Assembly: GCA_964512835.1 (NCBI GenBank)
Contig: CAZELA010000003.1
Coordinates: 15,516-79,515 of the forward strand
DNA: 64,000 nucleotides
Reading direction: 5' to 3'
DNA from: an uncultured Candidatus Saccharibacteria bacterium
GTDB lineage: Bacteria; Patescibacteriota; Minisyncoccia; Phycocordibacterales; UBA2100
This document shows positions 1-58,693 of the stretch, piece after piece. The position numbers and the translations under genes were made by a program. The notes beneath the pieces are model-generated. The model saw only the letters and a program-made list of their open reading frames with translations. It did not search any database and was not told where the DNA came from. Positions within the stretch are counted from its first letter, which is position 1. Each line of letters opens with the position of its first letter.

Positions 1-2712
1 GTTTGCAACGTTAGCCTTGATCGTGAGGGTGACATCCGTGTCCTTCGGCAAGTTTACCGGCGTCGAGAGTGTCGACGTAGCAATCGTGCTGCCAGAAGTG
101 AACGTGGCTGTACCAACCTGTGTCGCACCGTTCCAGATCGTGACCTGGATGAAGTCTGCCGAGCTTGTTGCAGAACCCTGGAGACCGAGCTCAGTGAGCG
201 TCATGTCTTCAGAAGTACCGCGGAGCTGGAAGGCACCGATGGTAACGCCGGTCGAAGCGCCCGCAGCAAAAGCGTAGGACGGAGACGACGGAGACGTTGT
301 AACTACGAGCGAGCTGTTTCCAACAGTCTGTGTGCCACTGTTAGAGATCGAGATCGTGAGATTCGTTCCCTGTGTGAGGCTGTTGCCAGACTGTACGCCC
401 GTTGCAGAGAAGGTACCACCAACCGTCGTAACACCTGTGGTGTATGCACCAGAAGCGAGCGACGAAAGGTTGCACTTAACTCCGAGCGTGACTACCGTAC
501 CCTTTGCAATCGTCAACGAATTGTCGAACGTAAAGGTGTTCTGCCCTGCCGAGATGGAAGACGGAACATTGGAGCCCGTGTTAACCGCTGACGATCCGTT
601 CCAGAGCTGGCACGAGCTTACGCCAGTGTTGCTCGAGAAGTTGATCGGGAGCTGGTTAACTCGGATGTCTTCACCCGACTGCGAAGCATCCAACTGGATG
701 TTCGCAAGCAAGACCGCAGAACCACCAGCAACGATCGTCTGAGCTGCCGGCTGAGCCGCAGCAGAGATGTTGAGGGTAGCACCACGAACGGTCATCGTAT
801 TCAGCGAGAAGGATGCTGCCGGGACAACTACAGTATTACCCGTAGTCTGACCGGTTACACCCGTCCAGTTTGCCGTGTTGATTGAAGCAGCATAGGTTGC
901 ACCGTTCGGTACGCCCGTAGCTACCTTACCCTTGATCGTGTAGACGTGTCGACCAGACTTGAGTGTGATCGAGTTGTTGAACGTGACCAAAGTGTTTACA
1001 GCGTCAACCGGACCAGCAACAACGACACCTGCGTCATCGACGAGGGTGACGTTCGTAAGCTGACCGGAAGAGCTCGTTGCAGTACCGTAGATGTTAATCG
1101 CCATGGTCTGAACCGTAAGCGCTTCACCCTTGATGTCTGCTACGAAGCCGCCGAGAGGCTGGTTCGAAACATTGATTGCAATGTTCTGCGACGGAACTTC
1201 CGTTGCGCGAGCAACAGTCGTAACCGACGAGCCCTGGACCAACACGGTCGAGCCCTGGAAGAACGGCTGTGCGTTCGTCGAGCCGGAACCATAGAAGCCA
1301 GAACCGTGTGCCGAAGCAGTCGACGGTGTCGAGCCATTGTACGACGCAGTCGGCGTGATGCCGTAGCCGTAGGTCTGACCGACAACGTAGATGTCAGATG
1401 CACGATCGATGTCCAACTCGATAATTCGAGAGTTCGAGTTCGAACCGGTTACATCACCCTGTACGTAGACATCGAGCGAGTTGCCCTTCGTCATGAGAAC
1501 GCCACCAGCGATCGTAGTCGTGTAGTAGCGACCGTCAGCCGAGAGAACCGTCGGGTAGCTGGTGCCCTCAACTACAGTCATGACATTCGAGATGTCAGAT
1601 GCAGATGCGGAACCATTGAGGCGCCATCGGATCGAGAAGAGGCGTACATCCTCAGCAGCACCCGCAGTCAAGCGGATACCCGAGAACTTAACCGCAGTGT
1701 CACCGATGTTCTTGGTGAGACCAGCGTTCGGATCGAACGAAGATCGTTCCATTGTCGCAGTACCGACAGCCAACGAGTTGTTGATCGTCTGGTTAGCACC
1801 CGAGATCGGGAGAGAACCGGAGACCGTGCTCGTCGTCTGGATACCAGTGACCTGGAGAGCAGCGACCTGACCAGCGTAGTTGGTGAGATCAGATGCCATG
1901 TTGCCAGCGATCGTGAAAGTCATTGACTGACCCGGCTGGAGCATCATCGATTCACCGACAGTCGCCATGTGGTTCGTGTCGAACGTTCGCGGAGTTCCAA
2001 TCTGGAGTCCGTTCTGATCGAGGAGAACAACACCTGCGAATGCAGCGTCAGATGCGAGACCGGCGCGAGTGACCGTCACGCCCGTAACCGTAACTGCAGC
2101 ATTCGACGTGTTCGTCAAAGTGAAGTTCGTGAACGGAACGCGCGATGCGCCCTTCGGAGCAAGCGAGTTTGCCGGCTGAGCGCCTGCAGTAACCGCGAGC
2201 GTACCCGGAGTGGTGTTACCGCCAGTGTTGCCACCGGTGTTACCGCCAGTCGTCGTGCAGAGGGCGTTTGCCTTTGCGCGAGTTGCAGCGAACCAGTTAC
2301 CAGTACCCTTCGACAAGCCCGACGGAGTCAAGATGTCAGCTGCGTACTTCTCCTGGAACTTGATCACAGCTGCTTTCGTAGCCGGACCGAAGGTTGAAGT
2401 CTCGTTTCCTGCTGAACCAGCGCCGCTAGCTGCGACCATGGTGTCAGAAGATTTGTTAAGGAATTTCTGCAAGTTCATGACTTCAGTTCCCTTTGAACCC
2501 ATCTTGAGGTTCGCTGTGAACGTGAAGGAGCACGAGGAGCTCGAAGAGCTACCAGAAAGTGCAGAGATCTGTGCGAGCAATGCGTTGATCTGAGCCTGGA
2601 GGTCAGAAACGGTATCTGCCTTTGCCGGTGTGGCGAAAGCAAAAACCGAGAGGACCATACCAATACCCAAGAGCACTGCTGCAACATTCTTTGTTGCTAA
2701 AGCTTTACTCAT
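1..2712 (-). CDS. Large secreted cell-surface protein (signal peptide, PG_binding_1-like domain, long Thr/Ser/Gly-rich beta-repeat region). Start codon at 2712; 3' end lies beyond the window's left edge.
   Basis: I checked all 904 minus-strand codons (reverse complement of 1..2712) and found no in-frame stop. The N-terminus is MSKALATKNVAAVLLGIGMVLSVFAFATPAKA|DT, a classic signal peptide with an AxA cleavage site. The following 'KMGSKGTEVMNLQKFLN...FGPATKAAVIKFQEKYA' matches the peptidoglycan-binding-domain-1 pattern. The plus-strand ORFs in the track across this region are Arg-rich antisense artefacts. The ORF track omits this gene because it runs off the window. Confidence 0.78.
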   Translation of the reverse strand, partial: MSKALATKNVAAVLLGIGMVLSVFAFATPAKADTVSDLQAQINALLAQISALSGSSSSSSCSFTFTANLKMGSKGTEVMNLQKFLNKSSDTMVAASGAGSAGNETSTFGPATKAAVIKFQEKYAADILTPSGLSKGTGNWFAATRAKANALCTTTGGNTGGNTGGNTTPGTLAVTAGAQPANSLAPKGASRVPFTNFTLTNTSNAAVTVTGVTVTRAGLASDAAFAGVVLLDQNGLQIGTPRTFDTNHMATVGESMMLQPGQSMTFTIAGNMASDLTNYAGQVAALQVTGIQTTSTVSGSLPISGANQTINNSLAVGTATMERSSFDPNAGLTKNIGDTAVKFSGIRLTAGAAEDVRLFSIRWRLNGSASASDISNVMTVVEGTSYPTVLSADGRYYTTTIAGGVLMTKGNSLDVYVQGDVTGSNSNSRIIELDIDRASDIYVVGQTYGYGITPTASYNGSTPSTASAHGSGFYGSGSTNAQPFFQGSTVLVQGSSVTTVARATEVPSQNIAINVSNQPLGGFVADIKGEALTVQTMAINIYGTATSSSGQLTNVTLVDDAGVVVAGPVDAVNTLVTFNNSITLKSGRHVYTIKGKVATGVPNGATYAASINTANWTGVTGQTTGNTVVVPAASFSLNTMTVRGATLNISAAAQPAAQTIVAGGSAVLLANIQLDASQSGEDIRVNQLPINFSSNTGVSSCQLWNGSSAVNTGSNVPSSISAGQNTFTFDNSLTIAKGTVVTLGVKCNLSSLASGAYTTGVTTVGGTFSATGVQSGNSLTQGTNLTISISNSGTQTVGNSSLVVTTSPSSPSYAFAAGASTGVTIGAFQLRGTSEDMTLTELGLQGSATSSADFIQVTIWNGATQVGTATFTSGSTIATSTLSTPVNLPKDTDVTLTIKANVAN

Positions 2713-2818
2713 ATTTTAGTTTTGACCTTTGTATTACATGTTCCCTATTAAAAGGAGAACACGGAACCGTGCACGTATTCATTCGACGTGAATACCTGCC
2801 CGTTTTTTGCGAACACAC

Positions 2819-2835
2819 TGTCTATTAAATAGACA
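2819..2835. promoter_or_regulatory. Perfect 17-bp palindrome TGTCTATT-A-AATAGACA in the AT-rich region upstream of the surface-protein gene; candidate operator site.
   Basis: Read directly from the sequence. It sits in the ~620-bp AT-rich non-coding region 2713..3332, about 110 bp upstream of the ATG at 2712. Confidence 0.3.
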
Positions 2836-3332
2836 ACGTGTCCACTAATAATTTATTGCTAACCCGAGCTTCTTGTTAATAGTCGACGCGAAGCAACGGG
2901 AGTAGCAGCGAATGGGAATGTGCCGTAACTGAGTTTCTATCCTGTCGGAATAATCTGAGCGGCGTGAATTCATGAGCACTCGTACATACAAGTATTTGTA
3001 TGTTCATGCATCATGAAAACGTGGTGATGCGATCACCGTAACGTTGTTTCAATATGTAAATGTCAAAGATCGACACAGAGGGCTTTCGCTTCCCTGTGCA
3101 ACACATCCAATGGATGCGTCCGCACAATTATATACTGGAAGCACTTTTAGACCCGTCTGAGCAAAACTCCGTTTTGTGGATAACTTGTGAGTAAAAAGGC
3201 CTCATTTCAAGCCCCTTTTGCCCTCGCAAGTTACCGGGGCAGGATACTGCACCGCCACACTGGAGTCAATTAAGGAGACGTGCGTACCGACCATATATTT
3301 CACGCCAAAACAGCGCCGGAATTGCGGGTATT

Positions 3333-4121
3333 TTAAACGACCGAATAGCGGGACCATCGCTTCAGACCGCTCTTTGTGACCTTGCCATCCGCGACCAGGG
3401 TCAGGAGCTCACGCTGGATCATCTTTTCGCTGTATTCGGGCAAATTCGAGCAAATGTCCTTAATACCCATGGAGCCGCTGGATCGAAGAATTTCCAATAT
3501 GCTTTGAGTCCGCACGCTCATTTGTCCGTTATGTGTGACAGTCTTCACCGCCGAAGCAGCGACCTCCCGTGTATCCGTTGCCTCCCCCGCAACACGAACG
3601 TCTTTTATGTCCTTTACTGCATAGGTCGCAGCGCGAGCGGGCAATGTTCCGACATCCAATAGCTCATCCTTTGATATAACGACACTTTCTGAAAAGTTTG
3701 TTCGCTGCGATACATGCATAAAATTGCCAAGCTCATCGAGCGCTTCAACGATGGCGCTCACATTTTGGGTAGAAGCAAATCCGGATATCGCCAGCATCCG
3801 CACCAGTGATATGAGGTGGCGGATCGAAGATACAACAGACACAACTCCACCGGAGTTCGACGAACGCATATCATCTCGGACCGAAAGCACTGACGACAGC
3901 ATCTGCATGGATTCCCTCCGAACCAGCCCGCGCAACGGCTCATCCTGATCAACGTGGTTGGTCAACAAATGGACTGCTGCCGCGATTCGCTCAGCACGAC
4001 GATAGGCTCTATCGGCCGCTCGATTATCACCAAAAGGATTCAAACGGACATTCTGAGAGTCGAAGAATTTTCCGAGATTTTCCGTCTTTTGTATGTCCTT
4101 ATTGTCGTCCATTTTATGCAT
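3333..4121 (-). CDS. Hypothetical protein with a C-terminal winged-helix-like segment
   Basis: 262-aa ORF. The C-terminus 'SILEILRSSGSMGIKDICSNLPEYSEKMIQRELLTLVADGKVTKSGLKRW' looks like an HTH/wHTH domain. I recognise no family for the N-terminal part. Confidence 0.5.
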   Translation of the reverse strand: MHKMDDNKDIQKTENLGKFFDSQNVRLNPFGDNRAADRAYRRAERIAAAVHLLTNHVDQDEPLRGLVRRESMQMLSSVLSVRDDMRSSNSGGVVSVVSSIRHLISLVRMLAISGFASTQNVSAIVEALDELGNFMHVSQRTNFSESVVISKDELLDVGTLPARAATYAVKDIKDVRVAGEATDTREVAASAVKTVTHNGQMSVRTQSILEILRSSGSMGIKDICSNLPEYSEKMIQRELLTLVADGKVTKSGLKRWSRYSVV

Positions 4122-42923: not shown

Positions 42924-42979
42924 AGTCGTCCGCAAAAATAGAATTTGCAGACGCTGCGCGTCTTTAATTATTTTTGGGC
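42924..42979. repeat. 56-bp direct repeat, copy 1 (contains AGACGC-tgc-GCGTCT hairpin plus T-rich tract)
   Basis: Near-identical to 43117..43172 over the first ~50 nt ('agtcgtccgcaaaaatagaatttgcagacgctgcgcgtctttaattatttttggg'); the two copies diverge at the final ~6 positions ('...gggcagcgc' vs '...gggcgactat'). Confidence 0.85.
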
Positions 42980-43116
42980 AGCGCGGGTAAGGAGTCTAGC
43001 GAGCGGGAATCGGTCAAGCGCTCGATTCTGCGCCGTCGCGCAGAACCTCCGCCTGACCACGCTTAGGCATCCCCATCTGCTGATGGGGGCCCCAGCCTTC
43101 GCCTTCGATTCCCGAT

Positions 43117-43172
43117 AGTCGTCCGCAAAAATAGAATTTGCAGACGCTGCGCGTCTTTAATTATTTTTGGGC
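43117..43172. repeat. 56-bp direct repeat, copy 2, abutting/overlapping the 3' end of tRNA-His
   Basis: As above. It is also flanked by inverted 11-mers cccgatagtcg / cgactatcggg, the latter being the tRNA-His acceptor/T-stem. Confidence 0.85.
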
Positions 43173-43242
43173 GACTATCGGGAATCGAACCCGAATCGAG
43201 GGCTCCACAAACCCTAGTGTTAACCGTTACACCATAGCCGCC
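43169..43242 (-). tRNA. tRNA-His (anticodon GTG) with an encoded G-1
   Basis: Hand-folded cloverleaf: G-1 opposite C73; acceptor GCGGCTA/TAGTCGC; D-stem GTGT/ACAC; anticodon stem AGGGT/GCCCT; loop TTGTGGA; T-arm TCGGG-TTCGATT-CCCGA. Confidence 0.85.
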
Positions 43243-45075: not shown

Positions 45076-45160
45076 GCGCAGGTGGCGAAATTGGTAGACG
45101 TACTACCTTGAGGTGGTAGCGCCCGTTAAGGGCATGGGAGTTCGAGTCTCCCCCTGCGCA
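45076..45160 (+). tRNA. tRNA-Leu (anticodon GAG)
   Basis: Acceptor GCGCAGG/CCTGCGC; anticodon stem CTACC/GGTAG; loop TTGAGGT; long variable arm; T-arm GGGAG-TTCGAGT-CTCCC. Confidence 0.88.
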
Positions 45161-45204
45161 CACATAACAAAAAACTGGGGCATGCCCCAGTTTTTTGTTA
45201 TGTG
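45161..45204 (+). terminator. Long perfect hairpin immediately after tRNA-Leu (cacataacaaaaaactgggg-cat-gccccagttttttgttatgtg)
   Basis: ~20-bp stem with a T-run in the 3' arm. Confidence 0.7.
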
Positions 45205-45217
45205 GCAGCAGAGGGAG

Positions 45218-45320
45218 ACGAGAAAGCGAGGACTGGGGACCCGCGAACACGCGGGGATGTCCGAGCAGGGCCGAGTGGAGAAAAGTTCTGACGAGAACTT
45301 TTCGAGCGCTTGGCCGAGTC
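45218..45320. repeat. Copy 1 of a ~104-nt structured repeat element (candidate ncRNA or MITE-like element)
   Basis: ~88% identical to 48024..48127. Internal hairpins CCCGCG-aaca-CGCGGG and GAAAAGTTC-tgacga-GAACTTTTC. A second 'cgagagcttgaccgagtc' half-site follows at ~45378. Confidence 0.7.
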
Positions 45321-45458
45321 TCCTGAGCGACGGCGAGCCGAGAGTTGTGGGTCACATTAGACGACGGCGCAAAATCGAGAGCTTGACCGAGTCGCCCCTT
45401 GTGCAATCGAAGGACGCAGCGGCGCGTCGCCGCTGCGAGCGCAGGGTATTATCCCTCT

Positions 45459-47644: not shown

Positions 47645-47791
47645 ACTGCCTGATTGCACACGTGTTGAGCGGGTCGCCATGCGACCCGCTCTTTCAATAA
47701 TTGGTTTTATTGGGGAAATACGCTAAGGTGATGCAGAAGTAATTCACGGGTCACAAGCTCCGAAGACGACACTCTTCGCGGCGCGGTACCC

Positions 47792-47821
47792 CCGATTGCT
47801 TTCGTATCGTAGTTCATGGGC
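47792..47821. repeat. Duplicate of the tRNA-Val upstream region plus its first ~12 nt (ttcgtatcgtagttcatgggcgattagctc); second copy at 47874..47903
   Basis: Exact 30-mer repeat read from the sequence. Confidence 0.7.
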
Positions 47822-47891
47822 GATTAGCTCCAGAGGACGATGCCGTCGTTCGCGGAGCGGTGCCTTGAAAAGAGTTCGTATCGTAGTTCAT

Positions 47892-47964
47892 GGGCGATTA
47901 GCTCAGTTGGTAGAGCAACGCTTTTACACAGCGAAGGTCACAGGTTCGAGTCCTGTATCGCCCA
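47892..47964 (+). tRNA. tRNA-Val (anticodon TAC)
   Basis: Acceptor GGGCGAT/ATCGCCC; D-arm GCTC-AGTTGGTA-GAGC; anticodon loop TTTACAC; T-arm ACAGG-TTCGAGT-CCTGT. Confidence 0.85.
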
Positions 47965-48012
47965 CACAAATACAAAGGACCGACAGATTCTGTCGGTTCT
48001 TTGTATTTGGTG
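47965..48012 (+). terminator. Long hairpin immediately after tRNA-Val (caaatacaaaggaccgaca-gattc-tgtcggttctttgtatttg)
   Basis: Read from the sequence. Analogous in position and form to the hairpin after tRNA-Leu. Confidence 0.65.
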
Positions 48013-48023
48013 TTGCGCATCAG

Positions 48024-48127
48024 GACGAGAAAGCGAAGGCCGGGTACCCGCGAGCACGCGGGGATGCCTGAGCAGGGCCGAGCGGAGAAACGTTTTGACG
48101 AAAACGTTTCGAGCGCTTGGCCGAGTC
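48024..48127. repeat. Copy 2 of the ~104-nt structured repeat element, followed by a 30-nt duplicate of the tRNA-Val 3' end
   Basis: Aligns to 45218..45320. Hairpin GAAACGTTTT-gacg-AAAACGTTTC preserves the copy-1 stem through compensatory changes. 'cgagtcctgtatcgcccacacaaatacaaa' appears at both 47948..47975 and 48121..48150. Confidence 0.7.
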
Positions 48128-48182
48128 CTGTATCGCCCACACAAATACAAAACCCGCAGCAGTGCGGGTTTTGTGCATTTTG

Positions 48183-58512: not shown

Positions 58513-58522
58513 CAATGATTCA

Positions 58523-58546
58523 AAGAAACGCCTTCGGGCGTTTTTT
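58523..58546 (+). terminator. Terminator after tRNA-Ser (AAACGCC-ttcg-GGCGTTT plus TTTTTT)
   Basis: Read from the sequence. Confidence 0.75.
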
Positions 58547-58663
58547 TGATTCATCATTTCGAGTAAGGGAAAAGATTCGAAGGCGAGCGGCGGAGGCTCC
58601 ATCAGCAGATGAAGCGACGCAAGCAGGGACGAACGAGCTCTTGGGCGAATCTCTCTACCCAAA

Positions 58664-58693
58664 TGAAGAACCGGTGCAGATAGCTGCACCGGT
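58664..58693. terminator. Hairpin CCGGTGCAG-atag-CTGCACCGG plus TTTTT just downstream of the DnaJ-domain gene stop
   Basis: Read from the sequence. Confidence 0.55.

Follow-up and report, generated by a model that had tools for sequence, protein, structure and literature searches.

What is the origin of the repeats that surround the 3' end of a tRNA-His gene in Candidatus Saccharibacteria? The window, by which we mean the whole 64,000-nucleotide stretch of DNA analysed here (assembly GCA_964512835.1, contig CAZELA010000003.1, positions 15,516 to 79,515), carries a direct repeat that runs into the tRNA-His gene and an inverted copy of the 3' end of the same tRNA. The initial annotation took this arrangement to suggest a decayed integration site of the tyrosine-integrase type or a small palindromic element rather than an intact island, with two neighbouring membrane-protein genes as possible remaining cargo. 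In the following sections we examine the repeats themselves, the family to which the segment between them belongs, the predicted structure of its core, and its variation among relatives.

The repeats at tRNA-His

tRNA-His(gtg) is located on the minus strand at 43169/70-43241, as identified by ARAGORN and by the Rfam tRNA model (59.1 bits). The 56-nt direct repeat AGTCGTCCGC...TTTTTGGGC occurs exactly twice in the window, at 42924-42979 and 43117-43172, with 0 mismatches, while 100 shuffled sequences gave 0 matches. The proximal copy overlaps the last 4 nt of the tRNA. The 18-mer TTCGATTCCCGATAGTCG is present on the plus strand at 43104-43121 and within the tRNA on the minus strand at 43172-43189, and no shuffled sequence gave two matches; the inverted repeat extends to 32 nt at 84% complementarity (43098-43129 / 43164-43195). 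Each repeat contains the AGACGC-TGC-GCGTCT hairpin. The observation made in the initial annotation is confirmed by these data, with one correction concerning the T-tract, which follows the stem directly only on the plus strand, antisense to tRNA-His. A simple terminator scan scores the hairpin only on that strand, whereas on the tRNA-His strand the T-run starts 10 nt after the stem; other members of the family described below have symmetric hairpins with T-runs.

Duplication by slippage or template switching around a terminator palindrome, or an error of assembly, could in principle generate such an arrangement. The hairpin modules are long palindromes that could promote fold-back synthesis, an exact 56-nt repeat 193 nt apart can arise by slippage, and Logan contigs break inside the repeat. 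Nevertheless, the arrangement is present unchanged in three independent assemblies (loci L002, L003 and L117), and the segment between the repeats recurs behind 14 different tRNAs in at least 10 assemblies. This contradicts a purely local origin, which we consider most unlikely.

The 56-nt repeat is mostly not tRNA sequence. Read on the minus strand, the proximal copy (43117-43172) holds the last 4 nt of the tRNA (GCCC), an A-rich trailer, the AGACGC/GCGTCT hairpin, a T-rich arm and the first 8 nt of the antisense copy of the tRNA (GGACGACT); we refer to this hairpin module as t. It is followed on the minus strand at 43104-43124 by B', the antisense copy of tRNA-His positions 54-73, which contains the exact 18-nt match and agrees at 19 of 20 positions without gaps. 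Positions 54-73 of the tRNA, together with the trailer, are termed B, and positions 1-53 are termed A. A conserved structured core then occupies 43013-43103 (minus strand). The direct repeat of tRNA sequence proper starts directly after this core, at 43004-43012 (minus strand), as a sense copy of the T-loop and T-stem (CGATTCCCG, tRNA positions 56-64). A scrambled stretch of 24 nt (CTCGCTAGACTCCTTACCCGCGCT) at 42980-43003 (minus strand) stands where the rest of the distal tRNA 3' end should be. Its 3' part, together with the adjacent GCCCA, reads ACCCGCGCTGCCCA, and the same relic lies downstream of tRNA-His in a relative, L038, from which we infer that an older decayed copy is likely. The distal 56-nt copy (42924-42979, minus strand) is the older tRNA-His trailer and hairpin module with 8 nt of a truncated B', and is followed by the abhydrolase promoter region.

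A family of cassettes behind tRNA genes

A repeat search of the whole window reveals that the 137-nt segment between the 56-mers is not a one-off relic. Part of it recurs, inverted, just downstream of tRNA-Ser (58574-58611), tRNA-Leu has the same layout of 3' end, hairpin and antisense 3' end (45141-45224), the regions behind tRNA-Leu and tRNA-Val share 104 nt at 88% identity, and the tRNA-Val 3' end plus 12 nt is repeated exactly 175 nt downstream. Alignment of the four regions gives one architecture, A-B-t-B'-core-B, in which the hairpin is about 45 nt and the core about 95 nt. The core contains the invariant stretches GGGGATG, GAGC, GCGGAG and TCGAGCGCTTGRCCGA (for the His copy, the invariant junction nucleotides are GGGGATG, GAGC, GCGGAG and TCGAGCGCTTG) and its 3' end reads GCGCTTGAC, while CGATTCCC precedes the hairpin and B'. 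The distal sense copy begins at CGA of the T-loop, which is position 56.

The member behind tRNA-Leu(gag) occupies 45162-45405 on the plus strand and comprises a hairpin, B', a full core (45201-45339) and then a 5'-truncated relic copy (45323-45405). The member behind tRNA-Val (47966-48151, plus strand) has a hairpin, B' and a core (48008-48146), and is flanked by the exact 30-nt direct repeat of the tRNA-Val 3' end plus 12 nt (47947-47976 / 48122-48151). The member behind tRNA-Ser(tga) (58514-58670, plus strand) is decayed and lacks the second hairpin arm. Thus, four of the six tRNA genes in the window carry a cassette, in spite of the little room that the tiny genomes of Patescibacteria offer for selfish or regulatory DNA.

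A composite motif was scanned over one genome for each of 185,579 species and gave 62 loci. The 15 loci with the 64-66-nt spacing of the family are all metagenome-assembled genomes (MAGs) of Patescibacteria, most of them Candidatus Saccharibacteria and a few labelled Paceibacteria or Parcubacteria; the other loci are chance hits in unrelated phyla. A scan of metagenomes added only four new loci. A covariance model, R1, built from 16 copies finds 32 matches at E<1e-6 in the loci collected. In the window it scores the His copy (42988-43127, minus strand) at 135 bits (E=1.7e-44), Leu at 139.3 bits, Val at 142.4 bits, and the decayed Ser copy at 37.9 bits (E=1.8e-10). About 25 non-redundant copies were obtained, and all 25 copies with enough flank lie behind a tRNA gene on the same strand; in 23 of them the model starts 39-47 nt after the tRNA end. 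The 14 isoacceptors represented are His, Leu(gag, caa, tag), Val, Ser(tga, gga, gct, cga), Gly(gcc), Arg(tcg), Trp, Tyr and Glu. The sense copy starts at tRNA position 56 in the 23 copies where it could be located. Exact runs of the direct repeat amount to 30 nt for Val and 19-22 nt at the loci L017, L038, L066 and L081, a 16-nt exact repeat is found at L115, and the His copy of the window has 9 nt. The motif scan of viral contigs found no copy, blastn searches of 50,697 phage records and 72,556 plasmid records also returned none, and no larger autonomous version was seen. Full-text literature searches found no description of such an element.

Predicted structure of the core

RNAalifold applied to a plain MAFFT alignment predicts a three-way junction, in which the T-stem part of B' pairs with the distal B to form the closing helix P1, and the two arms consist of P2-P3 and P4-P5. 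In this alignment 19 of 37 pairs show compensatory change. On 30 distinct sequences, 96% of cells are paired, compared with 76% in shuffles and 27-49% when partners are slid by 1-3 columns, 33 of 37 pairs change on both sides, and 0 of 500 shuffles reach any of the measures. The latter alignment was fitted to the model, but the independent MAFFT/RNAalifold run gave the same helices. Compensatory change therefore exceeds the controls, as expected for a structured RNA or a folded single strand under selection. In the two P4 pairs that vary on one side (columns 148/201 and 149/200), G-U alternates with A-U with only 1 unpaired cell in 59, so the fold belongs to the tRNA-sense strand. Two internal loops have tandem G-A/A-G character. 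A gathering-threshold scan of the whole window with Rfam 15 identified only the tRNAs, and scans of the His and Leu copies up to E=10 gave only chance miRNA or sRNA hits on the hairpins, so that no Rfam family accounts for the core.

The hairpin modules t are near-perfect hairpins of 18-21 bp with A-rich and T-rich arms. The His cassettes (window and L115) and Gly cassettes (L027 and L105) share a recognisably homologous module, which indicates that the hairpin travels with the core between tRNA types. In contrast to the core, B' varies considerably in quality. It is near-perfect in some copies (19/20 for His, 19/20 for Gly, and 20/20 for Arg(tcg) in two genomes with different T-stems), but poor (11-14 of 20 for Leu and Val) in others whose core is intact. 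The first pattern suggests that B' is maintained, and the second suggests decay.

These features raise the possibility that the cassette is a host-beneficial small RNA or cis-acting RNA element. In this view it would be co-transcribed with the tRNA by read-through of the hairpin, its closing stem and 5' arm would pair with the 3' half of the tRNA, for example to control folding, processing or quality control of the precursor, and the direct and inverted tRNA copies would be maintained for function rather than left by insertion. The strong covariation, the restriction of the fold to the tRNA-sense strand, the perfect B' of tRNA-Arg(tcg) in both genomes, and the covariation of the antisense T-stem part with the tRNA between the window and L038 at Leu(gag) all agree with this view. 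The core, including its invariant unpaired nucleotides, is far better conserved than B' in many copies, which fits a host-selected RNA better than dead insertions. Read-through is plausible at tRNA-His, where the hairpin is not directly followed by a T-run on the tRNA strand, and the long hairpin B:t:B' dominates the predicted fold of the precursor. On the other hand, B' is degenerate in many copies with an intact core, and the exact 19-30-nt duplications of the tRNA end plus trailer are longer than any helix requires. Together with the turnover discussed below, this leaves the host RNA as the main rival explanation, possible but less likely than an inserted cassette.

Other readings of the core could be set aside. 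The His copy has an in-frame ATG...TGA of 18 codons, but the stop is absent in the TTGGCC subtype and the hairpins covary as RNA, so this frame was rejected; the cassettes contain no ORF. The group I introns reported in tRNA genes of Patescibacteria are situated at anticodon-loop position 35/36 (PMC13011429), and the core is too small for such an intron. Dual guides of the TIGR or bridge-RNA type do not fit either, since TIGR spacers are 9 nt each, adjacent rather than complementary to one another, and lie in arrays next to Tas genes (PMC12045711). An origin of B' from a tRNA-derived minihelix was also considered. At the G4-U69 pair, B' follows the perfect complement of the 3' strand and not the tRNA's own 5' strand, although the tRNA of L038 has A at that position, so this comparison is not decisive.

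Gain, loss and turnover

Strain-level contigs recovered through neighbouring proteins provide three alleles at tRNA-His with identical upstream flank. L001 has the tRNA, one hairpin module and 8 nt of B' (GGACGACT), followed by the abhydrolase flank, and lacks the 193-nt unit with its core. The window type is also seen in L002, L003 and L117. L115 carries a different hairpin, about 75% similar to that of the window, B' at 18/20, and a core of another subtype (96 bits), which are followed by a near-complete tRNA 3' copy (CTATTCCTCGATAGTCGCCC) and exactly the L001-type trailer and hairpin. L115 thus shows directly that a cassette lies between the tRNA body and the previous 3' end with its hairpin. 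L001, by contrast, retains a cassette-type hairpin and 8 nt of B' and lacks the relic ACCCGCGCTGCCCA, which the window shares with the more distant relative L038. It is therefore best read as a deletion between the two 56-mers rather than a virgin site; we also note that L001 comes from a metagenome assembly.

The Val cassette is absent from L067, a Saccharibacteria MAG that is 100% identical to the window for 2775 nt up to tRNA-Val, although its spacer is non-homologous. This identity places the window in the lineage of L067. L038 keeps the Leu(gag) cassette but has only a relic at His and no cassette at Val. The seven relic matches that lie directly downstream of a fuller copy all keep the 3' end and lack the 5' part, starting at model positions 55-110. 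This is expected if the internal B-t-B' palindromes of tandem arrays are deleted, but would also fit 5'-truncated retro-insertion. Core similarity does not follow tRNA type, as the Leu(gag) core of the window is 95% identical to a Leu(caa) core in another genome and 86% to the orthologous Leu(gag) core. The differences in presence between near-identical strains and between relatives, the different core subtypes at the same tRNA-His site and the tandem truncated relics count against the host RNA.

Such turnover might also be achieved without any machinery of the cassette's own, by natural transformation and RecA recombination, with the conserved tRNA gene as homology on one side, the distal tRNA 3' copy as short homology on the other, and the core as a passenger or the source of some unrelated benefit. 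The cassette is bracketed by tRNA sequence on both sides, and sharp switches in identity occur at these loci, with L067 falling from 100% to 93% identity to the window beyond tRNA-Val and L117 diverging from within the distal 56-mer onward. L113 looks like a recombinant with a Val-type hairpin and B' joined to the Leu core and Leu distal flank, but it comes from a metagenome assembly and may be chimeric. RecA and SSB homologues are present in the window, and no dedicated recombinase was found. However, this explanation accounts for neither the antisense copy B' nor the strong structural conservation of the core, and the right-hand homology is only 9-30 nt. We regard it as doubtful.

Proposed interpretation as a non-autonomous cassette

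The reading that we favour, though at about even odds, is a family of small, non-autonomous cassettes of about 175-195 nt that occupy the 3' end of tRNA genes in Saccharibacteria and other Patescibacteria, such that an occupied gene reads A-B-t-B'-core-B-(older trailer and hairpin). We take the analysis to show that the cassette (B, t, B', core) lies between the tRNA body and the previous 3' end with its hairpin, that the tRNA stays intact but acquires a new downstream hairpin, that the previous 3' end is pushed distally, where it decays or is partly deleted, and that repeated entries give arrays whose older members are 5'-truncated. The mode of entry, in contrast, is inferred. Recombination between the B of the cassette and the B of the gene is suggested by the start of the sense copy at T-loop position 56, as in T-loop-class att sites, and B' would let the cassette strand fold B:B' into a duplex copy of the target, or into helix P1 that closes the core. 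The core would be the module recognised by a trans-acting enzyme, a recombinase or reverse transcriptase that was not found, or would act as an RNA after read-through from the tRNA promoter. In this view the 56-nt repeat of the window is the hairpin module present twice, once in the cassette and once in the older remnant, and the inverted 18-mer is B'. Against this reading, no recombinase, transposase or reverse transcriptase is linked to the cassettes, no copy was found in viral contigs, phage records or plasmid records, and it remains unexplained how one core family acquires arms matched to 14 different tRNAs. Moreover, the window's own allele does not fit a single clean insertion, because the distal tRNA copy is scrambled while the two 56-mers are identical; gene conversion between the two hairpin modules is the simplest patch, but it is not shown.

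If the cassette is mobile, it is an unusually small element whose target specificity is written in sequence copied from the target, and which remodels tRNA 3' flanks and terminators and creates recombination and assembly break points. If it is a host RNA, it is a new structured RNA class tied to tRNA expression in organisms whose RNA biology is almost unexplored. Either way, the covariance model offers a ready handle for annotation and for experiments in transformable Saccharibacteria. A bolder reading, which we put forward only tentatively and consider unlikely on balance, is that of a categorically new, tRNA-programmed mobile or semi-mobile element, in which a three-way-junction RNA or folded single strand of roughly 95 nt would use paired sense and antisense copies of the 3' half of its target tRNA, rather than a linked protein gene, to specify where it resides, and would replace the 3' end and terminator of the tRNA gene each time it enters; alternatively, it would be a tRNA-tethered regulatory RNA class unique to ultra-small Patescibacteria.

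Comparison with known systems

Integrative elements that use T-loop-class att sites in tRNA genes, one of the sublocation classes of tyrosine integrases reportedly distinguished by Williams 2002, also sit at the tRNA 3' end, keep the tRNA intact by an element-borne 3' segment, displace the original 3' segment to form a direct repeat that begins in the T-loop, and form tandem arrays at one tRNA. They have empty and filled alleles; for the cassettes an empty site is less clear, since L001 is probably a deletion derivative and the spacer of L067 is non-homologous. The cassettes share with attL/attR sites the direct repeat of the tRNA 3' segment that flanks the inserted DNA beside an intact tRNA. 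They lack the defining element-borne integrase, as the unit is only about 180 nt without an integrase or any other gene; furthermore, one core family serves 14 tRNAs with arms matched to each, and the unit carries an inverted copy of the target and a strongly covarying folded core.

Folded single-strand recombination sites, such as integron attC cassettes and the CTX-phage attP hairpin, resemble the cassettes in that an imperfect palindrome could fold a single strand into a duplex copy of the recombination site, new units enter at the proximal site and push older ones outward, and structure is conserved through compensatory change. As regards recombination of a folded strand, only the palindromic shape (B:t:B') is seen in the cassettes, no IntI or Xer dependence has been shown, the target is a tRNA gene and not attI or dif, the unpaired nucleotides are also highly conserved, and no gene is carried. 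Bacterial MITEs and REP/BIME-type intergenic repeats are likewise small, non-coding, multi-copy, structured, intergenic, and able to provoke rearrangements and assembly breaks. However, the inverted arms of the cassettes (B'/B) are not constant but copy the neighbouring tRNA, the duplications are 9-30 nt of tRNA sequence rather than a short fixed target-site duplication, and every copy is tied to a tRNA 3' end and to one orientation. The 178-bp repeats downstream of E. coli tyrT, each reported to end with the 3'-terminal 19 nt of tRNA-Tyr, are direct repeats that contain the 3' end of the tRNA, but that case is locus-specific, with no known shared structured core across tRNAs and no known antisense copy. 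The primer-binding site of retroviruses or LTR retrotransposons is an 18-nt stretch complementary to a tRNA 3' region, including the CCA end, and lies adjacent to reverse-transcriptase or LTR sequences. Here the complement covers positions 54-71/73 and excludes the CCA end, lies beside the tRNA gene itself, and has no reverse transcriptase or LTR context.

Neighbouring genes and the att-footprint reading

The interpretation given in the initial annotation is partly supported. It correctly described a small element at a tRNA 3' end rather than an intact island and the involvement of duplicated tRNA 3' segments. Relatives do differ in occupancy of the site, and the direct repeats of tRNA 3' sequence begin in the T-loop, a sublocation used by one class of tyrosine integrases. 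The initial annotation misassigned the repeats, however, and missed the family. As a footprint of a larger integrase-borne island lost from tRNA-His, the locus is very unlikely, since all about 25 copies have the same compact boundaries and no cargo, and the supposed filler is the most conserved part of the locus, which contradicts a one-off relic. A PHROGs scan of 51 ORFs of the window gave RecA-like, SSB and FtsK-like housekeeping proteins, but no strong integrase or transposase hit among the 25 families listed.

The suggestion that the membrane-protein genes are leftover cargo is not supported. The DUF2914 gene lies on the 5' side of tRNA-His, outside the repeats. An exact look-up of its 400-aa ORF returned no entry, because gene callers use a shorter 366-aa start. 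In L038 the gene is syntenic between tRNA-Leu and tRNA-His, at 72% amino-acid identity.

Possible recombination boundaries and assembly break points at tRNA genes

A 74-nt tandem unit lies upstream of tRNA-Val, at 47775-47904 of the window and at 2700-2836 of L067, a Saccharibacteria metagenome-assembled genome. The unit contains the promoter region, the first 13 nt of tRNA-Val and 18 further nt. The window possesses one pseudo-copy in addition to the real gene, while one more unit is present in the otherwise identical L067. Comparison of the two sequences reveals that the identity is 100% for 2775 nt up to tRNA-Val and drops to 93.2% for the next 5 kb. The break is located exactly at tRNA-Val and its cassette (47904-48148 of the window), which suggests a recombination boundary at the tRNA.

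In the metagenome contig L113 (positions 1540-3010), tRNA-Leu(gag) is followed by a plain terminator and a second L19 gene, after which comes tRNA-Val with a Val-type hairpin and B', the antisense copy of the tRNA 3' end, joined to the Leu-type core and Leu distal flank of the window. This contig represents either a recombinant between two cassettes or an assembly chimera. In L114, a contig of another strain (positions 1443-3733), the DUF2914 gene is shortened to 244 aa, and the tRNA-His locus is replaced by a region with tRNA-Ser(cga) and tRNA-Glu, each of which is followed by a weak family copy (45.6 and 31.9 bits). In the Logan contigs L004 and L005 and in the contig L001, the short-read assemblies end 29-30 nt inside the 56-nt repeat, as is expected for k=31 graphs at a branching repeat. 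These cassettes are therefore systematic assembly break points next to tRNA genes.

Hairpin modules and the antisense copy

The hairpins behind tRNA genes in this genome (45141-45224 and 62427-62475 of the window) have unusually long, nearly perfect A-rich and T-rich arms that start right at the tRNA end; this is also the case for tRNA-Arg(gcg), which has no cassette. Two hairpin modules are situated between tRNA-Gly and its cassette in the locus L043 (positions 176-300), and are separated by GTGCGGG...CCCGCAC, which are fragments of B' and B, where B is the sense copy of the tRNA 3' end. This arrangement looks like a cassette that lost its core, followed by an intact one. ARAGORN calls a “tmRNA” that overlaps tRNA-Leu(tag) in the locus L051 (positions 1589-1752), which is probably a false positive caused by the neighboring tRNA-like sequences.

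In 8 copies with the T-loop TTCGAGTC, namely those at 45214-45224 and 48022-48031 of the window and those in the loci L006, L017, L038, L050, L051, and L054, the antisense copy reads GA(C/T)GAGAA (GGCGAGAA in L038) instead of the exact complement GACTCGAA. The central dinucleotide is therefore kept in sense orientation.
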